IMG/VR virus record: IMGVR_UViG_3300025000_000063
Coordinates: 1 to 64,000 of that record
Direction: 5' to 3' (one strand)
DNA: 64,000 nucleotides
Source: a virus
Taxonomy: Duplodnaviria; Heunggongvirae; Uroviricota; Caudoviricetes
In this document: positions 6,930 to 17,700 of the stretch, piece after piece
Position numbering within the stretch: the stretch's first letter is position 1
Layout: every line of letters starts with the position of its first letter
Notes under the pieces: generated by a model
The model's input: the letters and a program-made list of their open reading frames with translations, nothing else
The model's database searches: none
Told to the model about the DNA's origin: nothing
Program-made: the position numbers and the translations under genes

Positions 6930-7700
6930 TTACTTCTTCTGAAACAGTAGCCGTTTTTTCAATTCTTCTTTTGCCCGAAACGCTATAGGCTCTTTTTTTC
7001 TTGCACCACGATTGCAAACTATTTCTATCTCGGTCAGATACCCATCAGATGTTGACTGGTGGGTTATTAAGCTGGGGTACTGTTTAATCTTTTTCTTGAA
7101 GTCAGAGGCGCGGAACTCAGGAACACACATAGCCCTCGACAGGGCTGTAACAAACGGCTTTGATGAAGCGTATTTAAGGCCCAGGCTTTGCATATACAGA
7201 ACCACGTCTTTTATTCTGTCGGTGAGCTTTGTGCTGGTGACTTTGTATGTCCCGTTAATAAACATATCACTGTAGTTTCCGCCGGAACCGGAAGGACTCC
7301 CTCTAAAAAACCCGATGGCGGTCGCGAGAGGAATCCTTGTTTCTTCGATAAAATCCTTTATCACAATATAATCTGGTCTTCCGTCTCTGACATACCCGTT
7401 CAGGAAATCGTGGAGAGACCATTTATTAACCGTCTTGGCCAAGTCGGGGATTGATATATCATCATTGCAGACAACGTATTTCGCCGGTATCCCCAAACTC
7501 TGAGCCACTTCAAGCCGGTGATGGCCGTCAATGACTTTAAATTTTTTGTTACCGTTGACTCTGACATGGCATGGATAAGCAGGTATCCAACCATGTTCAC
7601 GCATTGCCTTTGTTAAAAATCTGATCTTTGAAACATCCCGGTTGATCGGATGGAGTTCAAATTTTTCATAATCTGTCGTTGACCTTACTAAATCATTCAT
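6930..7700 (-). CDS. ParB/Srx-fold N-terminal domain protein (ParB-like nuclease domain)
   Basis: KVIDGHHRLEVAQSLGIP is the characteristic ParB N-terminal GxxR box. The start codon overlaps the upstream gene. Confidence 0.6.
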   Translation of the reverse strand: MNDLVRSTTDYEKFELHPINRDVSKIRFLTKAMREHGWIPAYPCHVRVNGNKKFKVIDGHHRLEVAQSLGIPAKYVVCNDDISIPDLAKTVNKWSLHDFLNGYVRDGRPDYIVIKDFIEETRIPLATAIGFFRGSPSGSGGNYSDMFINGTYKVTSTKLTDRIKDVVLYMQSLGLKYASSKPFVTALSRAMCVPEFRASDFKKKIKQYPSLITHQSTSDGYLTEIEIVCNRGARKKEPIAFRAKEELKKRLLFQKK

Positions 7701-8467
7701 GATACAATCCTTTCTATGTGGTTATTTATCCAAGCGACGACCCTCTCAAAAGCCTCTCTTCTTTGGGGGTCGTCGCTTCTAATCCTTTCTAATTGAGAAA
7801 TCGCCATCGTTGAGAACTGCATTGCAGAAGATGCTCGTTTGATATCTTCTTTTTTTGGCTCAACATTAATTTTCTTATAAGCCCCGGCAACACTCTTGTT
7901 AAGATCCTTCTTTAATTCTTTGGCCTTCTCAGGGTCAGATTGTTTCAAGCTGTCAATAGCATCCACAACAGCAATTGCTTTTTCAGCCGTTTTCCCTGAC
8001 CATCCTACTTTTGCGGCTGCGATGTCACGGGACTTACCTTCGCTTAGTGGTGGTAAATTTTCCACAACTAAAGGTTTGCCTGTTTTATGGACTTCCAGGT
8101 TTTTTGCACCGGCGGCAGCTTGTCTATCAGCCGCCCTCTTATCCTCAATCGCCTTCAACACTTTAACCTCCCTGGCTTTCTGTTCCTTGGTCTTCTCCCT
8201 CTGGACGTTGGAAGCTATAAGAATTTCCACCAGCTTATCCGGGTCGGTTTCTTCAATCTCCTGAACCGGGATGACTTCATGTTTGAGAGCTTTGCAGACA
8301 TTCCAACGACGATGCCCGGAAATGATGGTGAAATCTAAGGTAACGATTACCGGAGAGGTAATGCCGTGTTTTTTTATGCTCTGATAAAGATCGTCGTCAA
8401 ACGAATCACCATATATGAGGTTGTTTTGCGGGTGAGGTTTAAGACTATTAATAGGAGCATGATTCAT
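7697..8467 (-). CDS. ParB-like N-terminal domain protein with a Lys-rich C-terminal half
   Basis: LKPHPQNNLIYGD...ISGHRRW is a ParB-N motif. It is arranged in tandem with the second ParB-like gene. Confidence 0.6.
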   Translation of the reverse strand: MNHAPINSLKPHPQNNLIYGDSFDDDLYQSIKKHGITSPVIVTLDFTIISGHRRWNVCKALKHEVIPVQEIEETDPDKLVEILIASNVQREKTKEQKAREVKVLKAIEDKRAADRQAAAGAKNLEVHKTGKPLVVENLPPLSEGKSRDIAAAKVGWSGKTAEKAIAVVDAIDSLKQSDPEKAKELKKDLNKSVAGAYKKINVEPKKEDIKRASSAMQFSTMAISQLERIRSDDPQRREAFERVVAWINNHIERIVS

Positions 8468-8707: not shown

Positions 8708-8953
8708 TTATTCATCATAAAAGGACGCACAGGTTTCGGTCCCTGGCTCCAATTCAGTGTGACCGGCGTCCTTCACAACAAATGCTCCTTTCTCAAATAC
8801 TATCTCTTTAAATTTCTTATCACTGACGGCCAGCACCACCACATTCATATAATACTCTTTGTGATTAATACCCGTAGCTGCGTGAACCGCTTGAGCGGCC
8901 AACTTACCAGGCGACATTTTCAAATTTTTCCGGTAAATTATTTTGAGTCTCAT
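8708..8953 (-). CDS. PTH2-family peptidyl-tRNA hydrolase-like protein (short, 81 aa)
   Basis: NLKMSPGKLAAQAVHAA matches the PTH2 signature (GKGK[IL]AAQ..HAA). The protein ends with DAGHTELEPGTET and appears to lack the last about 25 residues of canonical PTH2. Confidence 0.5.
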   Translation of the reverse strand: MRLKIIYRKNLKMSPGKLAAQAVHAATGINHKEYYMNVVVLAVSDKKFKEIVFEKGAFVVKDAGHTELEPGTETCASFYDE

Positions 8954-11002: not shown

Positions 11003-11401
11003 TTAGCGTCCTATAGGGTCAAATTCTTCGAAATCAGCTAAAGTGTATACTTTGATACGCGGCGCCCAAATTTCGGTTGATTTTCCCTTCTCTTTTTTGA
11101 TCTTCCTCCAGGCGATCAATTCAAGGGCTGTCCCCGGGGTCGAAAGCCAATCTATAGCGTCTTGTCTTTTCTCGATCAGAATCTTTTTGTCGTGTCCGGA
11201 GAAATCTTGTCCGGCGGACTGGATACCAAGTACCCCGCGAGAGGGGTCGAGAGCTATTATGTCTATAATGCCCCACAGGTCTTTCCTAATACCTCTCTGA
11301 CCGTTCTTCACCCATACCTGAGCGACGTACCTCTCAACGATACCCGCTTTCATGCCTCGGCTTTTCAGCAGTTTAAGAGTTCGTTCTGTATTTGACGACA
11401 T
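11003..11401 (-). CDS. Holliday junction resolvase, archaeal Hjc-like PD-(D/E)xK nuclease
   Basis: The pattern ERTLKLLKSRG...RKDLWGIIDIIAL...GVLGIQS aligns by eye with the Hjc GSxxER...RKDxxPDIIAL...IEVKS pattern. Confidence 0.5.
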   Translation of the reverse strand: MSSNTERTLKLLKSRGMKAGIVERYVAQVWVKNGQRGIRKDLWGIIDIIALDPSRGVLGIQSAGQDFSGHDKKILIEKRQDAIDWLSTPGTALELIAWRKIKKEKGKSTEIWAPRIKVYTLADFEEFDPIGR

Positions 11402-11410
11402 CTTTTTTCA

Positions 11411-11623
11411 CTACTCCTTTTTTCCGGTGCTCCATTCAGCATACCAATCCCTTTCCGCTTTAGTTAAATCCTTTCTGTATTTGACAACATCTTTTTTCCT
11501 TTTCAAATTTTCAGGGTAATCATACCACACATATCTTCTTGCTGTGTGTTTTAATGTTCCACATTTAATACACCACTCTAAATTTTCTTTTCCTTTTTTC
11601 ACCCATTGGTGTTCACATTTCAT
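11411..11623 (-). CDS. small zinc-ribbon protein (70 aa)
   Basis: CEHQW...CIKCG is a Cys4-type ribbon. A GGAAA RBS is present. Confidence 0.4.
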   Translation of the reverse strand: MKCEHQWVKKGKENLEWCIKCGTLKHTARRYVWYDYPENLKRKKDVVKYRKDLTKAERDWYAEWSTGKKE

Positions 11624-11635
11624 TTAATTTTTCCT

Positions 11636-11695
11636 TTCATTTTGCCCGGTATTTCCTATTGGGGAAAAACCGGCTAAAAGCGGTTTTCCCTTATA
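11636..11695. other. long imperfect hairpin (about 25 bp stem, 8 nt loop)
   Basis: GGTATTTCCTATTGGGGAAAAACCG-GCTAAAAG-CGGTTTTCCCTTATAGGAATACC. A GC-rich mini hairpin follows at 11713-11733. Confidence 0.5.
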
Positions 11696-12033
11696 GGAAT
11701 ACCGATATTCAATCGAAACCTGAAGCCCCGCAATGGGCGGGCATCTCCAAGGTCGTGTAACTTTATGAAAATCTGAAAAACGTTCAATACTCGAAATTTA
11801 AAGTTAGCCGCTTTTGAAGACAGGCTATAGACTATTGTTTTAGAATTAGCTTTAAAGTCGAAAAAATTGAACGGTTTTTGACATCTTCGATATCCTTTAA
11901 AGTAACTCGCGCTTCGTCTGCTTACTCCTGCTATTATCTTCGCCGTTACATTAGAGACTCGATTTTTCAGTGTGTATTTTTTTACCCAATTTTCCTGTAA
12001 ATCGCTCCAGGCTATTGTTTCAGAATTAGCCAT
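11674..12033 (-). CDS. doubtful ORF (119 aa) inside a structured, repeat-rich noncoding-looking region
   Basis: No convincing RBS. The composition is Arg/Lys/Phe-rich and odd. It contains two copies of a 24 bp DNA repeat. It may not be coding. Confidence 0.2.
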   Translation of the reverse strand: MANSETIAWSDLQENWVKKYTLKNRVSNVTAKIIAGVSRRSASYFKGYRRCQKPFNFFDFKANSKTIVYSLSSKAANFKFRVLNVFQIFIKLHDLGDARPLRGFRFRLNIGIPIRENRF

Positions 12034-12394
12034 TTTTTCTGTTCCCTTTAGAGAAATTTTAAATTTATTTTAGAGTTCATCGCCTGTTAAAACCTTTGAT
12101 ATACTATTAACACAGAGTTACAAATAAAGCAAGTTTAGAGAACATTTAAAGTACAGCCTTTTTCGCTAACCAGGAGATAATAGCCCAGCAAGGTTCTCCA
12201 GCTTTTAGCAATAAATGCAATCTTTCCGAGCAGGCGTTCACCACAACCTCCGCCACAGGCTGTTGTTTCAGAGTTACAGAGGCTTTCATGGTGAACGCCC
12301 GCTCGGAATCGTTTTGTCGGGTTTTTTAGTGTTTTGTCGGTGTTAAAAATAGGTCGGCCGTCGGGTGAAAAGCGGTTAGATTTTCCGTGAAACA

Positions 12395-12613
12395 TTATGG
12401 GTTTTTTATCCAATCTATGGCCTCTTGAAATAGCTCAATCGCTTCTTCTCTTGTAAAATAACCGGAAAACCATCCACCACATTCTTCCCTGACGCGGATT
12501 AATTTTCCCTCGTCAAACTCCGGGTCTTCATTCTTTTTAATGCTGAAAAGGCGATCATGACCGTATTTTTTAAAGCATAGTTTACCGGGCTTTGTTTCTT
12601 CAAAGTATTTCAT
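12395..12613 (-). CDS. hypothetical protein (start MKYFEET)
   Basis: ORF overlaps the upstream gene stop. No domain recognised. Confidence 0.4.
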   Translation of the reverse strand: MKYFEETKPGKLCFKKYGHDRLFSIKKNEDPEFDEGKLIRVREECGGWFSGYFTREEAIELFQEAIDWIKNP

Positions 12614-12617
12614 TGTT

Positions 12618-13130
12618 CTACCTCGTTTCAAAAAGGATTTTATAAGGAGAGGTCTTCTTTATTTTATCCTGCATCTCGGAAGTTTCAAACCTCTCCAAGC
12701 GTATGGTTTTTATTTCCGCGCCAGTTACATTTTCAAAGTCTGCTATCAGTTTAAGGATTTCATCTGCCAATACTTCTTTTAAATTTTTATCGTTCATTAT
12801 TTCCCCCCCCCCACAAAAATATTTCTTTATTTCACTTCTCGTTATAGCCGGTCGGGTCCATTCTCTTTGAAACCTTCTCCAGTTTTTGTCTTCATCCCCG
12901 GCAAAAGAATTAAAAGCCGGTCCGTCCATTTCTGCCGGAGCAATCTTTGACCACGCTTTATAAAGATATTCAGCCTTTTCGATGTCATAAGTGAATAAGG
13001 TGCTGATATGAACTCTTGTTATATCCTTTGGGGTGCTCTCGTTCGGAACATCGAAAAAACAGAGATGATCCTCCGGGGAAGCCGAAGTTTTTCTTGGGAA
13101 CACTCTTGCAAGGCCTATCTCTCCCAGCAT
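12618..13130 (-). CDS. hypothetical protein (170 aa) containing a C10 homopolymer tract at 12803-12812
   Basis: The ORF overlaps the primase stop. GGG codons are encoded by the poly-C run. The C-terminal 57 aa may be a separate product, because the run G10 AAATA ATG could act as an RBS. Confidence 0.35.
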   Translation of the reverse strand: MLGEIGLARVFPRKTSASPEDHLCFFDVPNESTPKDITRVHISTLFTYDIEKAEYLYKAWSKIAPAEMDGPAFNSFAGDEDKNWRRFQREWTRPAITRSEIKKYFCGGGEIMNDKNLKEVLADEILKLIADFENVTGAEIKTIRLERFETSEMQDKIKKTSPYKILFETR

Positions 13131-15055
13131 GTCAGTACCCTCCTGTTCCCGGATAAGGGGTCAAGTCTGTATTCTTTTTTACCGTGTTCGTGGATCATTG
13201 AAAAAATCTCCTCTAAGTTATCGGTTATGGTGTTGACCGCCTTGCTCGATACTCCTGCTGCTTTTATTTCTTCCGCTATTTTCTTTAATGTGGTTGGGCC
13301 TTGTCTATCGACAATAGACATAGCCGCTGAAGCCAGAGACTCGTTCGATCCTGAGCCTATAACTTGGTCGAGTTGAACGGCTTCCAGGACGCCGGTGGTT
13401 TCGTCGTTGTCGTAGAACAGTTTTACTGATTTCTTTTCAAACCATTCAAATGACTCTGAAGGCGGCGCAAGGTTAGCTTTGGCGGAATCAAGGCGGGTGT
13501 ACCAGGAAGCCCGGGCGGGCGTTATACCGTATTGCAGGGCCTCTTTTTCGCTCATGGTATAAAAGGTATGGGCTATGCGGGCGGCACTTGCTAAAGCGGA
13601 TGCGCCGCGTGCTTTGTCCATGTTCCCGTGGGTGTCTTTGGCGCCTTTAGATGTGTGGTGGACAATGGATATGGCGCAACCGGTTTCTTTGGCTATCTTT
13701 CGGAAGGACCGCATAACCATGTTGATTGCCCCATTGTCGTTTTCGTTGACTTGATGGCATTCTACAAATGGGTCGAGAATGAACAACTTAATACGCCGTT
13801 GGCGTATCTGGTTGACAATAGCCCCGAGAAGAGGTTCGTTTATAACGGGTCGGTTCCGGTCATCATATGAAACAAGGGTCAACGGGTTGTCGTAGGCTGA
13901 ACTGTAATAAAAGTTTTCAAGGTCTTCTTTGGTTAAATTATATTGCTTTGCAGCCGCCATTATTCTAAGGGAGAGTTCGTCGAACGGATCTTCTGTGTTG
14001 AAGAGCCATACGGCCCCCGGTAATTTAACCTCGTCATGGGTGAGTCGTTTTCCGGACGCCACTGAGATTGCTTCGAGGATGGTGAGGAGGGATTTTCCTG
14101 CGCCTCCTGGGGCGATGGTGAGGGTGGTGAAACCGAGTAAATAGCGATGTCCGAGGAGCCATTGTCGGGGTTGAAGCTGCTCGATTTTGGTTTCTGCGGC
14201 GCATTTGACCATGGCTGTGGAAGAAATACCACTGGAAAACATCGCTTCTGGTGTTGCATTGCCTGGTCTGTCTTTTGCGTACTTGAAAGCGTTTGCAATT
14301 TTCTTTTCAAGTTCAGTCTGGTCCCAGGGGGGAAATGCCTTGGTTTCGTTCCAGTGCTCTGATAATAATTCCAGGGCAGTGGCTTCTGAGACATTGAAAT
14401 CCCGTAATTTGCACGCAATTTGGAATGTAACAGCATCTCCTCCATTGCCTTGAATTGCTTCGGGTGCATAGCTTTTAAGCCATAGAATAGCTCTTTCAAC
14501 GTTGGAGTTTTTGTCTGGTTCTGATATGGGGATGTCATAATCCTCTCTCCTTTCTGTTGGTATTCCTACGAAGTTTATTATCCATTCCGGCAGGGGGGCG
14601 GGGATACCTTTTTTGCACAGAACGTACTCCCCCTTTCCCTTCACGTGTTGGCCCGGTAAAGGGATCATCACGGGTATGTCTATTCCTTTTGCTAATTTGT
14701 CTACTCCTCTGGCGCAATACCCTTTGAATACGTAATGAACTCCCGCATTGGGGGTTTTCGCTTCCATAGTTTCTGGTAGATTGCCGTATTGATTTTCAAG
14801 GTTTACAAGGTTTATTCCCCCTTTTTTTCCTTTTTTGTTGTCGACATCAACAACAGTCAGTCCAGAAGCTTTTAAATTCACGCAAAAATAACAGTTGGGC
14901 CATTGTTCGACCCATTTTTCCAACGCAGGTATTTCGGAAGAAGATTTGGTACTCCATTCTATGCAGGGGTAATGTTTTTCATTACTCCAACGGGAGGGGA
15001 ACAGCTTCCACCCCGCTTTTGCAAAAGGTATAGCGTTTAACAGATTTTTATTCAT
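13115..15055 (-). CDS. bifunctional primase-polymerase (PrimPol) / RecA-like replicative helicase (AAA_25, RepA/D5-like)
   Basis: The N-terminal half reads PSRWSNEKHYPCIEW...VVDVDNKKG..., which is PrimPol-like. The C-terminal half has Walker A LTIAPGGAGKSLLT and Walker B/arginine region LFILDPFVECH...ISIVHHTSKG. Confidence 0.75.
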   Translation of the reverse strand: MNKNLLNAIPFAKAGWKLFPSRWSNEKHYPCIEWSTKSSSEIPALEKWVEQWPNCYFCVNLKASGLTVVDVDNKKGKKGGINLVNLENQYGNLPETMEAKTPNAGVHYVFKGYCARGVDKLAKGIDIPVMIPLPGQHVKGKGEYVLCKKGIPAPLPEWIINFVGIPTERREDYDIPISEPDKNSNVERAILWLKSYAPEAIQGNGGDAVTFQIACKLRDFNVSEATALELLSEHWNETKAFPPWDQTELEKKIANAFKYAKDRPGNATPEAMFSSGISSTAMVKCAAETKIEQLQPRQWLLGHRYLLGFTTLTIAPGGAGKSLLTILEAISVASGKRLTHDEVKLPGAVWLFNTEDPFDELSLRIMAAAKQYNLTKEDLENFYYSSAYDNPLTLVSYDDRNRPVINEPLLGAIVNQIRQRRIKLFILDPFVECHQVNENDNGAINMVMRSFRKIAKETGCAISIVHHTSKGAKDTHGNMDKARGASALASAARIAHTFYTMSEKEALQYGITPARASWYTRLDSAKANLAPPSESFEWFEKKSVKLFYDNDETTGVLEAVQLDQVIGSGSNESLASAAMSIVDRQGPTTLKKIAEEIKAAGVSSKAVNTITDNLEEIFSMIHEHGKKEYRLDPLSGNRRVLTCWER

Positions 15056-15805: not shown

Positions 15806-16225
15806 TCATTCCCCCCAGTTAATAACCCAGTTCTTTTCTTTGCAAATAGCTATGATCAAATCTGAGTCTTTCATTGTTGGAGGACCGGGAACCCACAGGT
15901 CTCTTTTCTCTTGGAAAAAATGCAATCTTTCAACTTTTTTCCCGCCATATGGGCATGGGCCGCCATCCGCCCAGATATCAAACATTTCGGGCTTTGGATG
16001 CGCCCAAGCGTCTCTTCGCATAAGTTCAAGCGTGAGAGCGGGTGGCAATTTACCAAGTTGGCATCTTAATATGCTGACCGGGAAGAAAGCAAAGCTGCAC
16101 CGTTCTGCAAAGCTGCACTGTTCCGGGAAGTTTTTGATTAACGAATAATCCCCGGTAGGGCAGTGTTTGACTCTATGATAGTCAACAGGAAATAAATCAA
16201 ATTCTTTTTGTGTGTACTTTTTCAT
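15806..16225 (-). CDS. hypothetical protein (139 aa)
   Basis: ORF. Its stop overlaps the upstream Thg1-like gene. Confidence 0.45.
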   Translation of the reverse strand: MKKYTQKEFDLFPVDYHRVKHCPTGDYSLIKNFPEQCSFAERCSFAFFPVSILRCQLGKLPPALTLELMRRDAWAHPKPEMFDIWADGGPCPYGGKKVERLHFFQEKRDLWVPGPPTMKDSDLIIAICKEKNWVINWGE

Positions 16226-16926
16226 TTCACCAGCTCCTCTATAATTTCCTTGTTTTCAGTGAAAATCGCATCAGGCCTTGCAGAAATCCCCTCCGCTCCT
16301 CTAAACATAAATCCCCCGTTTTTCCATACCGGGTCGAGATCTGCCCAGTTGATTCCTTTTGTGTAGAGCAATTCATGCAGGTCCGGTGTCTTTTTGTTTT
16401 GGAGTTCCTTGTGCGGGAAATGAGCCTGGGCCAGCATTTGAATAGAATTTCTGAGCCAATCTTGTTGCCTCCAGATGAAATAATTACACACCTCTTCCTT
16501 TGGGATATTGAACACCCGGCAGTCGAATAGCCCGTCTTCGCCAAAGGTTTTTGAAAACTGAACCGAGGCCATACCCGCTGCGACTGAACACATTTTTTGG
16601 ATATTGTAATCAAACCATGCCTCGGTTGTTAACAGTTCGTAGTCTGTCAATAATAAGGAGATTTCATCTGATTGAACGTAGGCGCATTTAGCGCCCTGTA
16701 CTTTCGCTAAAAGGGTCAAAGCGGTTGAGCCCATACACTGTCTGAACATATCGTCAAAAGGTTTGTTGCATTGACGAGTCAGCGTGTGAAAGGCCTTGCC
16801 GTCCAGTCGCATTATGACTGGCGTTCGCCGGGTGAGTTTTAACCGGTAGCGGTCTTCATAATTCTTTTTCATTCTGTCGCCTAAACTGTCATTCTTCATA
16901 TAAACCCCCTTTCCTTCGCCAACCAT
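16222..16926 (-). CDS. Thg1-like protein (tRNA-His guanylyltransferase family, 3'-5' nucleotide polymerase)
   Basis: VIMRLDGKAFH and VQSDEISLLL match the two catalytic aspartate-containing motifs of Thg1/TLP ([VI]V[VI]R.DGR.FH and GQSDEYSF). The C-terminal region, YFIWRQQDWLRNSIQ, also resembles the family. The true start is probably MKNDS at about 16899. Confidence 0.7.
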   Translation of the reverse strand: MVGEGKGVYMKNDSLGDRMKKNYEDRYRLKLTRRTPVIMRLDGKAFHTLTRQCNKPFDDMFRQCMGSTALTLLAKVQGAKCAYVQSDEISLLLTDYELLTTEAWFDYNIQKMCSVAAGMASVQFSKTFGEDGLFDCRVFNIPKEEVCNYFIWRQQDWLRNSIQMLAQAHFPHKELQNKKTPDLHELLYTKGINWADLDPVWKNGGFMFRGAEGISARPDAIFTENKEIIEELVK

Positions 16927-17584: not shown

Positions 17585-17700
17585 GTACAGTATAAAAATA
17601 CTCGTGTCAAGAGTATTTAAAATATTTTATGGAAAGAAAAAAAACTCTTGACACGAGTATTTTAGGTCTATAATATACATCTCACGAGTAAGCCGTAGAC
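17585..17700. promoter_or_regulatory. divergent promoter/operator region: an inverted pair of 21 bp sites, AATACTCGTGTCAAGAGTATT / AATACTCTTGACACGAGTATT, and a consensus rightward promoter TTGACA-N17-TAATAT (TATAAT overlapping)
   Basis: The sites are at 17595-17620 and 17650-17672. The rightward -35/-10 elements are at 17655-17690. The leftward copy also embeds TTGACA on the minus strand. Confidence 0.6.

Follow-up and report, generated by a model that had tools for sequence, protein, structure and literature searches.

The PrimPol-helicase locus and its downstream element

The first 64,000 nt of the IMG/VR virus record IMGVR_UViG_3300025000_000063 (Caudoviricetes; hereafter the window) contain a conserved, hairpin-rich element of ~768 nt on the minus strand (11629-12396, delimited with nhmmer by a 7-copy profile, positions 1-769). 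It lies downstream of a gene for a PrimPol-helicase (13115-15055, minus strand), a putative initiator that combines a PrimPol (AEP) domain, an AAA_25 helicase and a C-terminal domain. Two small minus-strand genes (12618-13130 and 12395-12613, the latter encoding 72 aa) stand between the two. In every version the element is followed by a gene for a Zn-ribbon-like protein of 70 aa with the signature Cys-x-His...Cys-x2-Cys (11411-11623, minus strand), and synonymous changes relative to the L021 type introduced below indicate that this is a real gene. Further downstream come genes for proteins of 132 and 452 aa and then a dNMP kinase gene; the minus strand carries every gene around the element. 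The original prediction, made from the letters of the window, had described 11636-12420 as a structured, repeat-rich and probably non-coding segment, with a replication origin or a non-coding RNA (ncRNA) as candidates.

Relatives of the locus were found via a graded series of PrimPol protein matches and then with a profile of translations of the reading frame that runs through the element. The exact PrimPol protein occurs on 16 aquifer or groundwater metagenome contigs, including the L013-L018 copies, but the segment is 100% identical across all of them, so that they were uninformative for comparison. The closest three diverged relatives, L019, L020 and L021, carry the segment at 72-74% nucleotide identity over ~1 kb. 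The translation profile search revealed full-length copies also in L022/L023, L024/L025 and L026, which brings the related groundwater contigs with the entire element to five or six, and a shorter, 148-codon version is present in three others (L021, L027 and L028).

The 5′ boundary of the element is sharp: in blastn comparisons, similarity begins at ATGTTTCACGG, at the same base in all relatives and whatever the upstream gene, and it stops just short of the Zn-ribbon gene. In all cases 0-1.3 kb separate the element from the PrimPol-helicase gene on its upstream side, and the small Zn-ribbon gene follows directly; the distance to PrimPol is nil in L019, where the two abut, and 0.4-1.3 kb in the window, L020, L021, L022 and L024. 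The gene just upstream of it differs from copy to copy, being PrimPol itself, a 59-aa gene, a PAPS reductase gene, a 79-aa gene or the 72-aa gene of the window. Throughout these genomes the contents of the interval between PrimPol and element differ (nothing, small open reading frames (ORFs) or PAPS reductase), which gives the impression of a hotspot for accessory genes, with the sharp 5′ edge of the element as its border.

Outside these loci the family is scarce. ORF119, the longer of two ORFs within the element, has one other homologue among 5.8 billion proteins, P0002, which equals it in length and shares 60% identity. An exhaustive HMMER scan of 1.84 billion representative proteins yielded four clusters only, all consisting of these same ORFs. 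No related element was found in more distant PrimPol phages, IMG/VR, the JGI metagenomes, the INPHARED phages or the PLSDB plasmids, the JGI search returning only copies of L022 and L024; the GTDB genomes gave chance matches only, and no known phage or plasmid sequence matched the element in blastn. The element family, which is limited to one narrow clade of groundwater phages that are uncultivated, is undescribed, being without Rfam, Pfam or PHROG entry and without annotated record.

Anatomy of the element

Read along the gene strand, the element opens with an invariant 5′ block (12362-12396; ATGTTTCACGGAAAATCTAACCGyTTTTCACCC; alignment A5, columns 64-98), which contains a small A/T hairpin at 12367-12386 (96% paired) and two TTCAC words. 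The stop codon of the preceding gene and the conserved ATG of this block (12395-12393) overlap as TAATG, in an arrangement of the coupling type. This overlap, together with an AAGGG located ~11 nt before the ATG of ORF119, contradicts the earlier statement that the ORFs of this segment lack a ribosome-binding site. Four direct GTCGG repeats on the plus strand (CCGAC on the gene strand) were confirmed at 12316, 12336, 12353 and 12360 (region 12316-12364). Such a cluster within 50 nt is unique in the window (Poisson estimate ~2e-4). It includes two copies of GTTTTGTCGG 20 nt apart and is located in a variable linker, and its last copy alone is common to the relatives.

The inverted repeat of the original prediction corresponds to hairpin H1 (12224-12308), the arms of which comprise 20 nt at 95% complementarity (12224-12243 and 12289-12308), are 45 nt apart and form, at 12288-12308 and 12224-12244, a stem of 20-21 bp. 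This stem is almost invariant in all full-length copies (21 pairs, 96.6% paired), its DNA-fold z-scores are -7.3 and -5.3, and copy A of a repeated motif described below (motif 1) sits at its apex. Hairpin H2 follows directly (12150-12223; arms 12205-12223 and 12150-12169, with an inner stem); it is 98% paired and shows one-sided changes only. Taken alone, the window copy of H2 folds weakly (z -1.6). The central stretch (12031-12149) has diverged in this phage, is rich in AT (70-73%) and holds a decayed motif-1 copy (B), three in-frame TAA codons and a 1-nt deletion. In the relatives this central part forms further hairpins, with copy B at a tip.

Motif-1 copy C (GCTAATTCTGAAACAATAGCCTGGAGC) occupies 12004-12030, with a small hairpin (11994-12011) arising from its 3′ part. 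An A-rich tract (11961-11993) is kept in all versions, including the short one (alignments A5 and A8). The 3′ domain (11710-11953) constitutes a long imperfect palindrome or hairpin in the relatives, with motif-1 copy D at its apex: matched against its own profile on the reverse strand, it gave E-values of 1e-11 to 1e-17 in the relatives and 0.26 in the window, where the inner part alone still folds and the whole domain reaches a z-score of -0.8. The bases of its stems are built of a lineage-specific hexamer, CTTTAA(A) in the window and ACTGCAA in the relatives. Within this domain a GC mini hairpin (GCCCGC-CCATT-GCGGGGC, 11725-11742) can be read from the sequence as predicted; its sequence varies among relatives and is only loosely conserved. 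The element ends with a terminal hairpin of 24 pairs (11647-11704; 99.4% paired; z -5.0 and -5.25 on the two strands), which is the long hairpin previously placed a few bases off, at 11636-11695. The TAG closing the frame sits in its loop. No T run follows it on either strand, and a terminator scan was negative there.

The reading frame is open but does not evolve as a protein gene

Two ORFs of 92 and 119 aa had been noted in this segment and discounted for their odd composition and the apparent lack of a ribosome-binding site. Both exist, but they had been dismissed too quickly: ORF92 (12135-12413, minus strand) and ORF119 (11674-12033, minus strand; the same length is open in P0002) are the 5′ and 3′ remnants of a stop-free frame of about 240 codons, which is continuous over 246 codons in L019 and 242 in L020. 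Altogether, 240-246 codons are open in L019, L020, L022, L024 and L026, with no indel in 720 nt between copies that differ by 7-20%, and 148 codons are open in L021, L027 and L028. The other two frames carry 10-19 stops. When the derived bases were permuted among the observed variable sites of diverged pairs, 4-5 stops arose on average vs 0 observed, and the frame stayed open in only 0.07-0.8% of the trials. For the five diverged relatives, the permutation P-value of the stop-free frame is ~0.003-0.01. In the window, the three TAA codons and the 1-nt deletion fall into the central third of the frame and leave ORF92 and ORF119.

One explanation would be a fast-evolving small protein gene, for instance with an anti-defence or accessory role, intact at 240-246 aa in the relatives and broken in two in this phage; the nucleotide conservation would then have to come from recent exchange between phages. 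The avoidance of stop codons and of indels in five diverged copies, the open 148 codons of the short version and 119 of P0002 and the coupling of the start codon to the upstream stop codon are in line with such a gene. However, the substitution pattern makes it quite improbable. Substitutions were distributed evenly over the three codon positions in ten of ten pairs (e.g., 47/44/41), and so were the variable columns (76/73/76). The frame showed a proportion of synonymous differences (pS) of 0.18-0.25 and an omega of 0.5-1.0, compared with pS of 0.32-0.63 and omega of 0.04-0.25 for PrimPol, o132, o191 and o452 on both flanks. Thus, its nominally synonymous sites are 2-3 times more conserved than neighbouring neutral sites, and its nonsynonymous sites are less conserved than those of real genes. 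Blocks of 25-60 nt are invariant, without a synonymous change, between genomes whose flanking genes have synonymous divergences (dS) above 1. Had the 119-aa ORF been maintained as a protein, synonymous changes should prevail among relatives; no such bias was found.

Further properties of the putative product agree with this. Codon-usage log-odds of -0.04 to -0.07 per codon place the frame at the bottom of the distribution in this genome, as expected for non-coding sequence, while the neighbouring genes reach +0.15 to +0.28. Amino-acid replacements were no more conservative than permuted ones, AlphaFold2 returned a pLDDT of 27 and a pTM of 0.17, and there were no matches to the product in Pfam and PHROG, nor distant homologues. 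Moreover, about ten Cys codons were exchanged jointly for Phe or Ser codons in the window lineage because the tetranucleotide TGCA became T[TC]TA there. Judged by these patterns, the nucleotides of all three codon positions are under selection and stop codons are selected against, but the amino acids are not under selection. Since 240 codons stay stop-free in five diverged relatives, translation is probably part of the story.

Two other explanations for the frame were considered. A second gene overlapping it, which could account for the flat codon profile, was rejected because none of the other five frames contains a long ORF. That the frame serves a reverse transcriptase as a stop-free template, as in DRT2/Neo-like systems, is improbable: it ends in a stop codon in every copy, and no reverse-transcriptase domain was detected among the scanned neighbours.

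Conserved pairing at the level of DNA or RNA

The segment folds far better than its shuffled versions, with z-scores of -6.4 and -6.2 on the two strands (-6 to -10 for the element overall). Together with the flat codon profile and the high omega, this bears out the first reading of the region as structured and probably not a protein gene. Base pairing was analysed in a seven-sequence alignment, the consensus structure being predicted from the same alignment. Within it, 93% of the cells were paired vs 37-46% with the partners slid, and 17 pairs were changed on both sides, compared with 6.0±1.9 in shuffles and 2-7 after sliding. Twelve of these 17 are located in helices 15-20 of the 3′ domain. 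As an example of such changes, ACTGCAA/TTGCAGT in the relatives became ACTTTAA/ATAAAGT in the window. In the terminal hairpin of L020, CGG/CCG was replaced by TGA/TCA (two compensatory pairs), and in the short version of the L021 type this hairpin is altered on both arms. Thus, the pairing is kept in related phages, partly through compensatory changes.

Such a pattern would also be produced by a structured RNA, either a processed large ncRNA or a cis-regulatory part of the operon mRNA that, e.g., serves as a multi-hairpin platform bound by a protein at the repeated loop motif, or regulates the Zn-ribbon gene. The strongly negative z-scores and compensatory changes, the placement of the repeated motif in hairpin loops, a G·U pair on the gene strand in H1 of the window, and a size and ornateness reminiscent of large phage-borne RNAs are all compatible with it, and the element is co-oriented with the operon and hence certainly transcribed if the operon is. 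Nevertheless, we consider an RNA function unlikely. An RNA made from the gene strand should tolerate G·T (G·U) and purge A·C, yet at mostly Watson-Crick positions the gene strand showed 31 G·T and 33 A·C exceptions, i.e., no strand bias, which speaks for DNA. The opposite strand folds equally well or better. There was no match at gathering threshold to any of the 4227 models of Rfam 15 (including GOLLD and ROOL) in the window and five related loci, relaxed matches had E-values above 1, and a tRNA/tmRNA search of the window found none. A conserved promoter is absent, because conservation begins exactly at the ATG with unrelated sequence upstream, and the last hairpin lacks a terminator. Finally, the open frame implies the passage of ribosomes, which would melt the structure and is hard to reconcile with a folded RNA machine. 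The missing strand bias, the folding of both strands, the lack of promoter and terminator, and the open frame therefore favour a DNA-level element over the stand-alone RNA initially considered, and the defence-decoy RNA also put forward then found no support.

Motif 1 and the lineage-specific hexamers

The recurrence of a longer motif, noticed three times at first sight, is borne out by a 27-nt family (motif 1) with clear copies at ~11824-11850, 12004-12030 and ~12252-12278. Its degenerate pattern matched three times in the 64-kb window vs 0.08 expected, and none of 100 shuffles reached three. The fourth, decayed copy B (12095-12121) was revealed by the alignment with relatives. The motif, 11-24 nt long around its invariant core TGAAACAATAG, is thus presented three to four times, at least twice at hairpin tips; the short version contains the core in three direct copies and one inverted copy. 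A mimic of a CRISPR repeat or a mini-array was discarded in view of the irregular motif spacings (157, 91 and 182 nt), and a scan of 185,579 genomes with a 20-nt motif gave three single unrelated matches and no arrays.

The most repeated hexamers differ between lineages: ACTGCA with 7-9 copies in what we call the TGCA clade, CTTTAA/ACTTTA with 5-6 in the window and CTGTCG/CGACAG with 5-6 in the short version. They largely represent the two arms of the stem bases, TTGCA/TGCAA in the relatives and CTTTAAAG/CTTTAAA in the window. TGCA occurs at ten aligned positions in L019 and L020, and once, at another place, in the window, which has T[TC]TA at those ten positions, including five TTTAAA. Judged from its translation, P0002 is of the window type. 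For such a concerted switch, either a sequence-specific partner or homogenisation among the repeat units must be invoked.

The PrimPol-helicase is not obviously this partner, as far as protein comparisons tell. Its residues 1-170 (window 14546-15055, the AEP domain) are ~28-31% identical to those of L019, L020 and L021, whereas the rest is 81-89% identical, and it looks like the AEP catalytic domain of the window PrimPol has been swapped. Although this swap appeared promising, co-evolution of the hexamers with a PrimPol domain was rejected, since L021 and the C-terminal domain break the correlation. Avoidance of a restriction site as the cause of the change from TGCA to TTTAAA was rejected as well; the genome-wide frequency of TGCA is near expectation (201 vs 221). 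That TGCA might be a methyltransferase target, comparable to GATC in oriC, is speculation, as nothing ties the sites to enzymes. Methyltransferase genes sit near PrimPol, just upstream of it, in L020 and L021, and none was found in the scanned part of the window.

Repeated, partly palindromic short motifs might also point to another protein-binding array at the DNA level, such as a centromere-like partition site for a ParB-domain protein, or a packaging or recombination site. A protein with a ParB_N match is encoded 4 kb away, at 7697-8467, and the invariant 5′ block TGTTTCACGG may resemble half of the canonical parS palindrome. A full parS-type palindrome is missing, linkage is to the PrimPol gene rather than to ParB-domain or terminase genes, and no integrase or terminase gene is adjacent. 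We regard such an array as a long shot. As a separate observation, the ORF with the ParB_N match overlaps an adjacent ORF (6930-7700) of equal length (256 aa), in which no such match was found.

A candidate origin or primosome-loading region

Taken as a whole, the comparisons suggest that 11629-12396 is a cis-acting, hairpin-rich DNA element, most likely the replication origin or primosome-loading region of the PrimPol-helicase; the probability of this reading is roughly 40%. It is based on the tie between the element and the PrimPol-helicase gene in every genome while the intervening genes vary, and on the joint occurrence of preserved hairpins, a longer motif that is likewise conserved, and short repeats peculiar to each lineage. 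Across the window, the cumulative GC skew reaches its minimum at 12-13 kb. In such an origin, the initiator or an accessory protein would bind the repeated motifs, and the hairpins would extrude, or form on unwound DNA, and provide start sites for the primase. Because the element lies within an operon, ribosomes would read through it, and selection would act solely against stops and not for the peptide; avoiding stops might, e.g., spare the downstream genes from polarity. In this phage, the middle of the element would have been remodelled into an AT-rich stretch with three TAA codons and a frameshift, leaving two short frames.

Several observations weigh against an origin. Every motif-1 copy of the long version has the same orientation. 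The GC skew largely follows gene orientation, and the AT-rich centre (70-73%) is marked in the window only. The C-terminal domain of the window PrimPol shares 90-93% identity with its counterparts in L020, L022 and L024, yet these phages have the other hexamer; that of L019 differs, yet its hexamer is the same; and L021 has the AEP type of L019 and L020 but a third hexamer. The covariation comes from seven sequences, two of them nearly identical, and from a structure predicted on the same alignment. The polarity account of the open frame is a conjecture. Furthermore, the divergent-promoter region near 17.6 kb is an alternative possible site of an origin. In that gap (17594-17690) we observed two copies, 44 nt apart, of a 24-nt near-perfect palindrome (AAAATACTCGTGTCAAGAGTATTT) plus a weaker third one; these palindromes look like operators.

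It is also possible, though doubtful, that ribosomes translate a functional nucleic-acid element (origin or large structured RNA) that codes for no protein, its peptide being evolutionarily invisible. The 240 codons would then be kept free of stops and indels purely for ribosomes to traverse them, either as protection from polarity or for coupling to the downstream gene, and a specificity partner would have left its mark in the palindromic hexamers of the stem bases (TGCA, TTTAAA, CTGTCG).

In all contigs with this element, gene callers annotate hypothetical proteins in its place. The case illustrates how ORF predictions can hide a conserved cis element, a disguise that is exposed by simple tests: the codon-position profile, the conservation of synonymous sites relative to flanking genes, and codon usage. 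To our knowledge, no origin or priming site is known for this PrimPol-helicase family; if the element is indeed an origin, it would provide a defined DNA substrate for these enzymes of uncultivated groundwater phages. An open frame with conserved hairpins but no selection on amino acids is unusual and constitutes a candidate case of selection for translation itself.

Other features of the window and related loci

The window-type AEP domain recurs in the more distant PrimPol-helicases P0008-P0011, P0013 and P0019 (~50% identical). The window also encodes a Thg1-like 3′-5′ nucleotidyltransferase (16222-16926, Pfam E-value 1.5e-25), which is conserved in the relatives L020 and L013-L018, and an 81-aa fragment of a PTH2-type peptidyl-tRNA hydrolase (8708-8953); the two genes are hints of tRNA repair or translation rescue. 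The tetranucleotide CTAG is nearly missing, with 5 observed vs 52 expected in the window and 0-2 occurrences in related loci.

The 3′ end of the Zn-ribbon gene (window 11380-11480; L020 8640-8760) repeats the first ~75 nt of the next gene (AAAAAAGATGTyGTCAAATACAGAA...), which are read in another frame within the Zn-ribbon gene. In L019 and L022-L024, a single copy of this stretch exists and the 132-aa gene begins within the Zn-ribbon ORF. Between L021 (8959-9601) and L027 (138-792), the element and the Zn-ribbon gene differ by 7-12%, and the next gene (130 aa) in 3 of 390 nt, which indicates mosaic recombination with a boundary shortly after the Zn-ribbon gene.

Comparison with known systems

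A cis element beside its initiator is of a familiar kind, and the stop-free yet otherwise unconstrained frame and the concerted hexamer switches are its unusual traits. The nearest parallel is the Rep-ori system of staphylococcal pathogenicity islands (SaPIs) and other phage-inducible chromosomal islands (PICIs). In SaPIs, the binding sites of a (primase-)helicase that has a winged-helix domain are 6-12 short iterons; these follow its gene immediately and are arranged as two opposed sets around an AT-rich centre (PMC9371898). Similarly, the putative initiator described here is a fusion of primase, helicase and a C-terminal DNA-binding domain; the cis element lies just 3′ of its gene, and it contains short repeats (5-9 copies) of lineage-dependent sequence and, in this phage, an AT-rich centre. 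Unlike in SaPIs, the element is four to five times longer (~770 nt) and dominated by long hairpins, it includes an additional 24-nt motif in three to four copies, and the hexamers serve as stem arms instead of forming two opposed sets. The AT-rich centre is weak in the relatives, a stop-free frame covers the element, and hexamer type and C-terminal domain of the initiator vary independently, which again counts against an origin of this type.

Further origins located beside self-loading primase-helicase initiators are those of phage P4 (alpha and its ori) and the stem-loop origin of pRN1 with orf904. Single-strand initiation (ssi) signals are hairpins of ~40 nt, usually one per strand, that are recognised by plasmid and phage primases, such as RSF1010 ssiA/ssiB with RepB′ and the G4-type origins. 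The element described here resembles them in having conserved hairpins beside a dedicated primase, with pairing that is kept without the strand bias of an RNA, but it comprises at least five hairpins over 770 nt and carries all motif copies on one strand. It is similar to GOLLD and ROOL RNAs in size class (500-800 nt), multi-hairpin architecture and phage context; it differs from them in its lack of an Rfam match, promoter, terminator and strand bias and in the frame running through it. Origins within coding sequence are known as well, the lambda ori inside gene O and the N15 ori inside repA, the frames of which encode functional, conserved proteins. As in these cases, a replication element would be embedded in a frame that is, putatively, translated, so that nucleotide constraint overrides codon-level patterns; in contrast to them, no selection at the amino-acid level is detectable in the frame of the groundwater phages.

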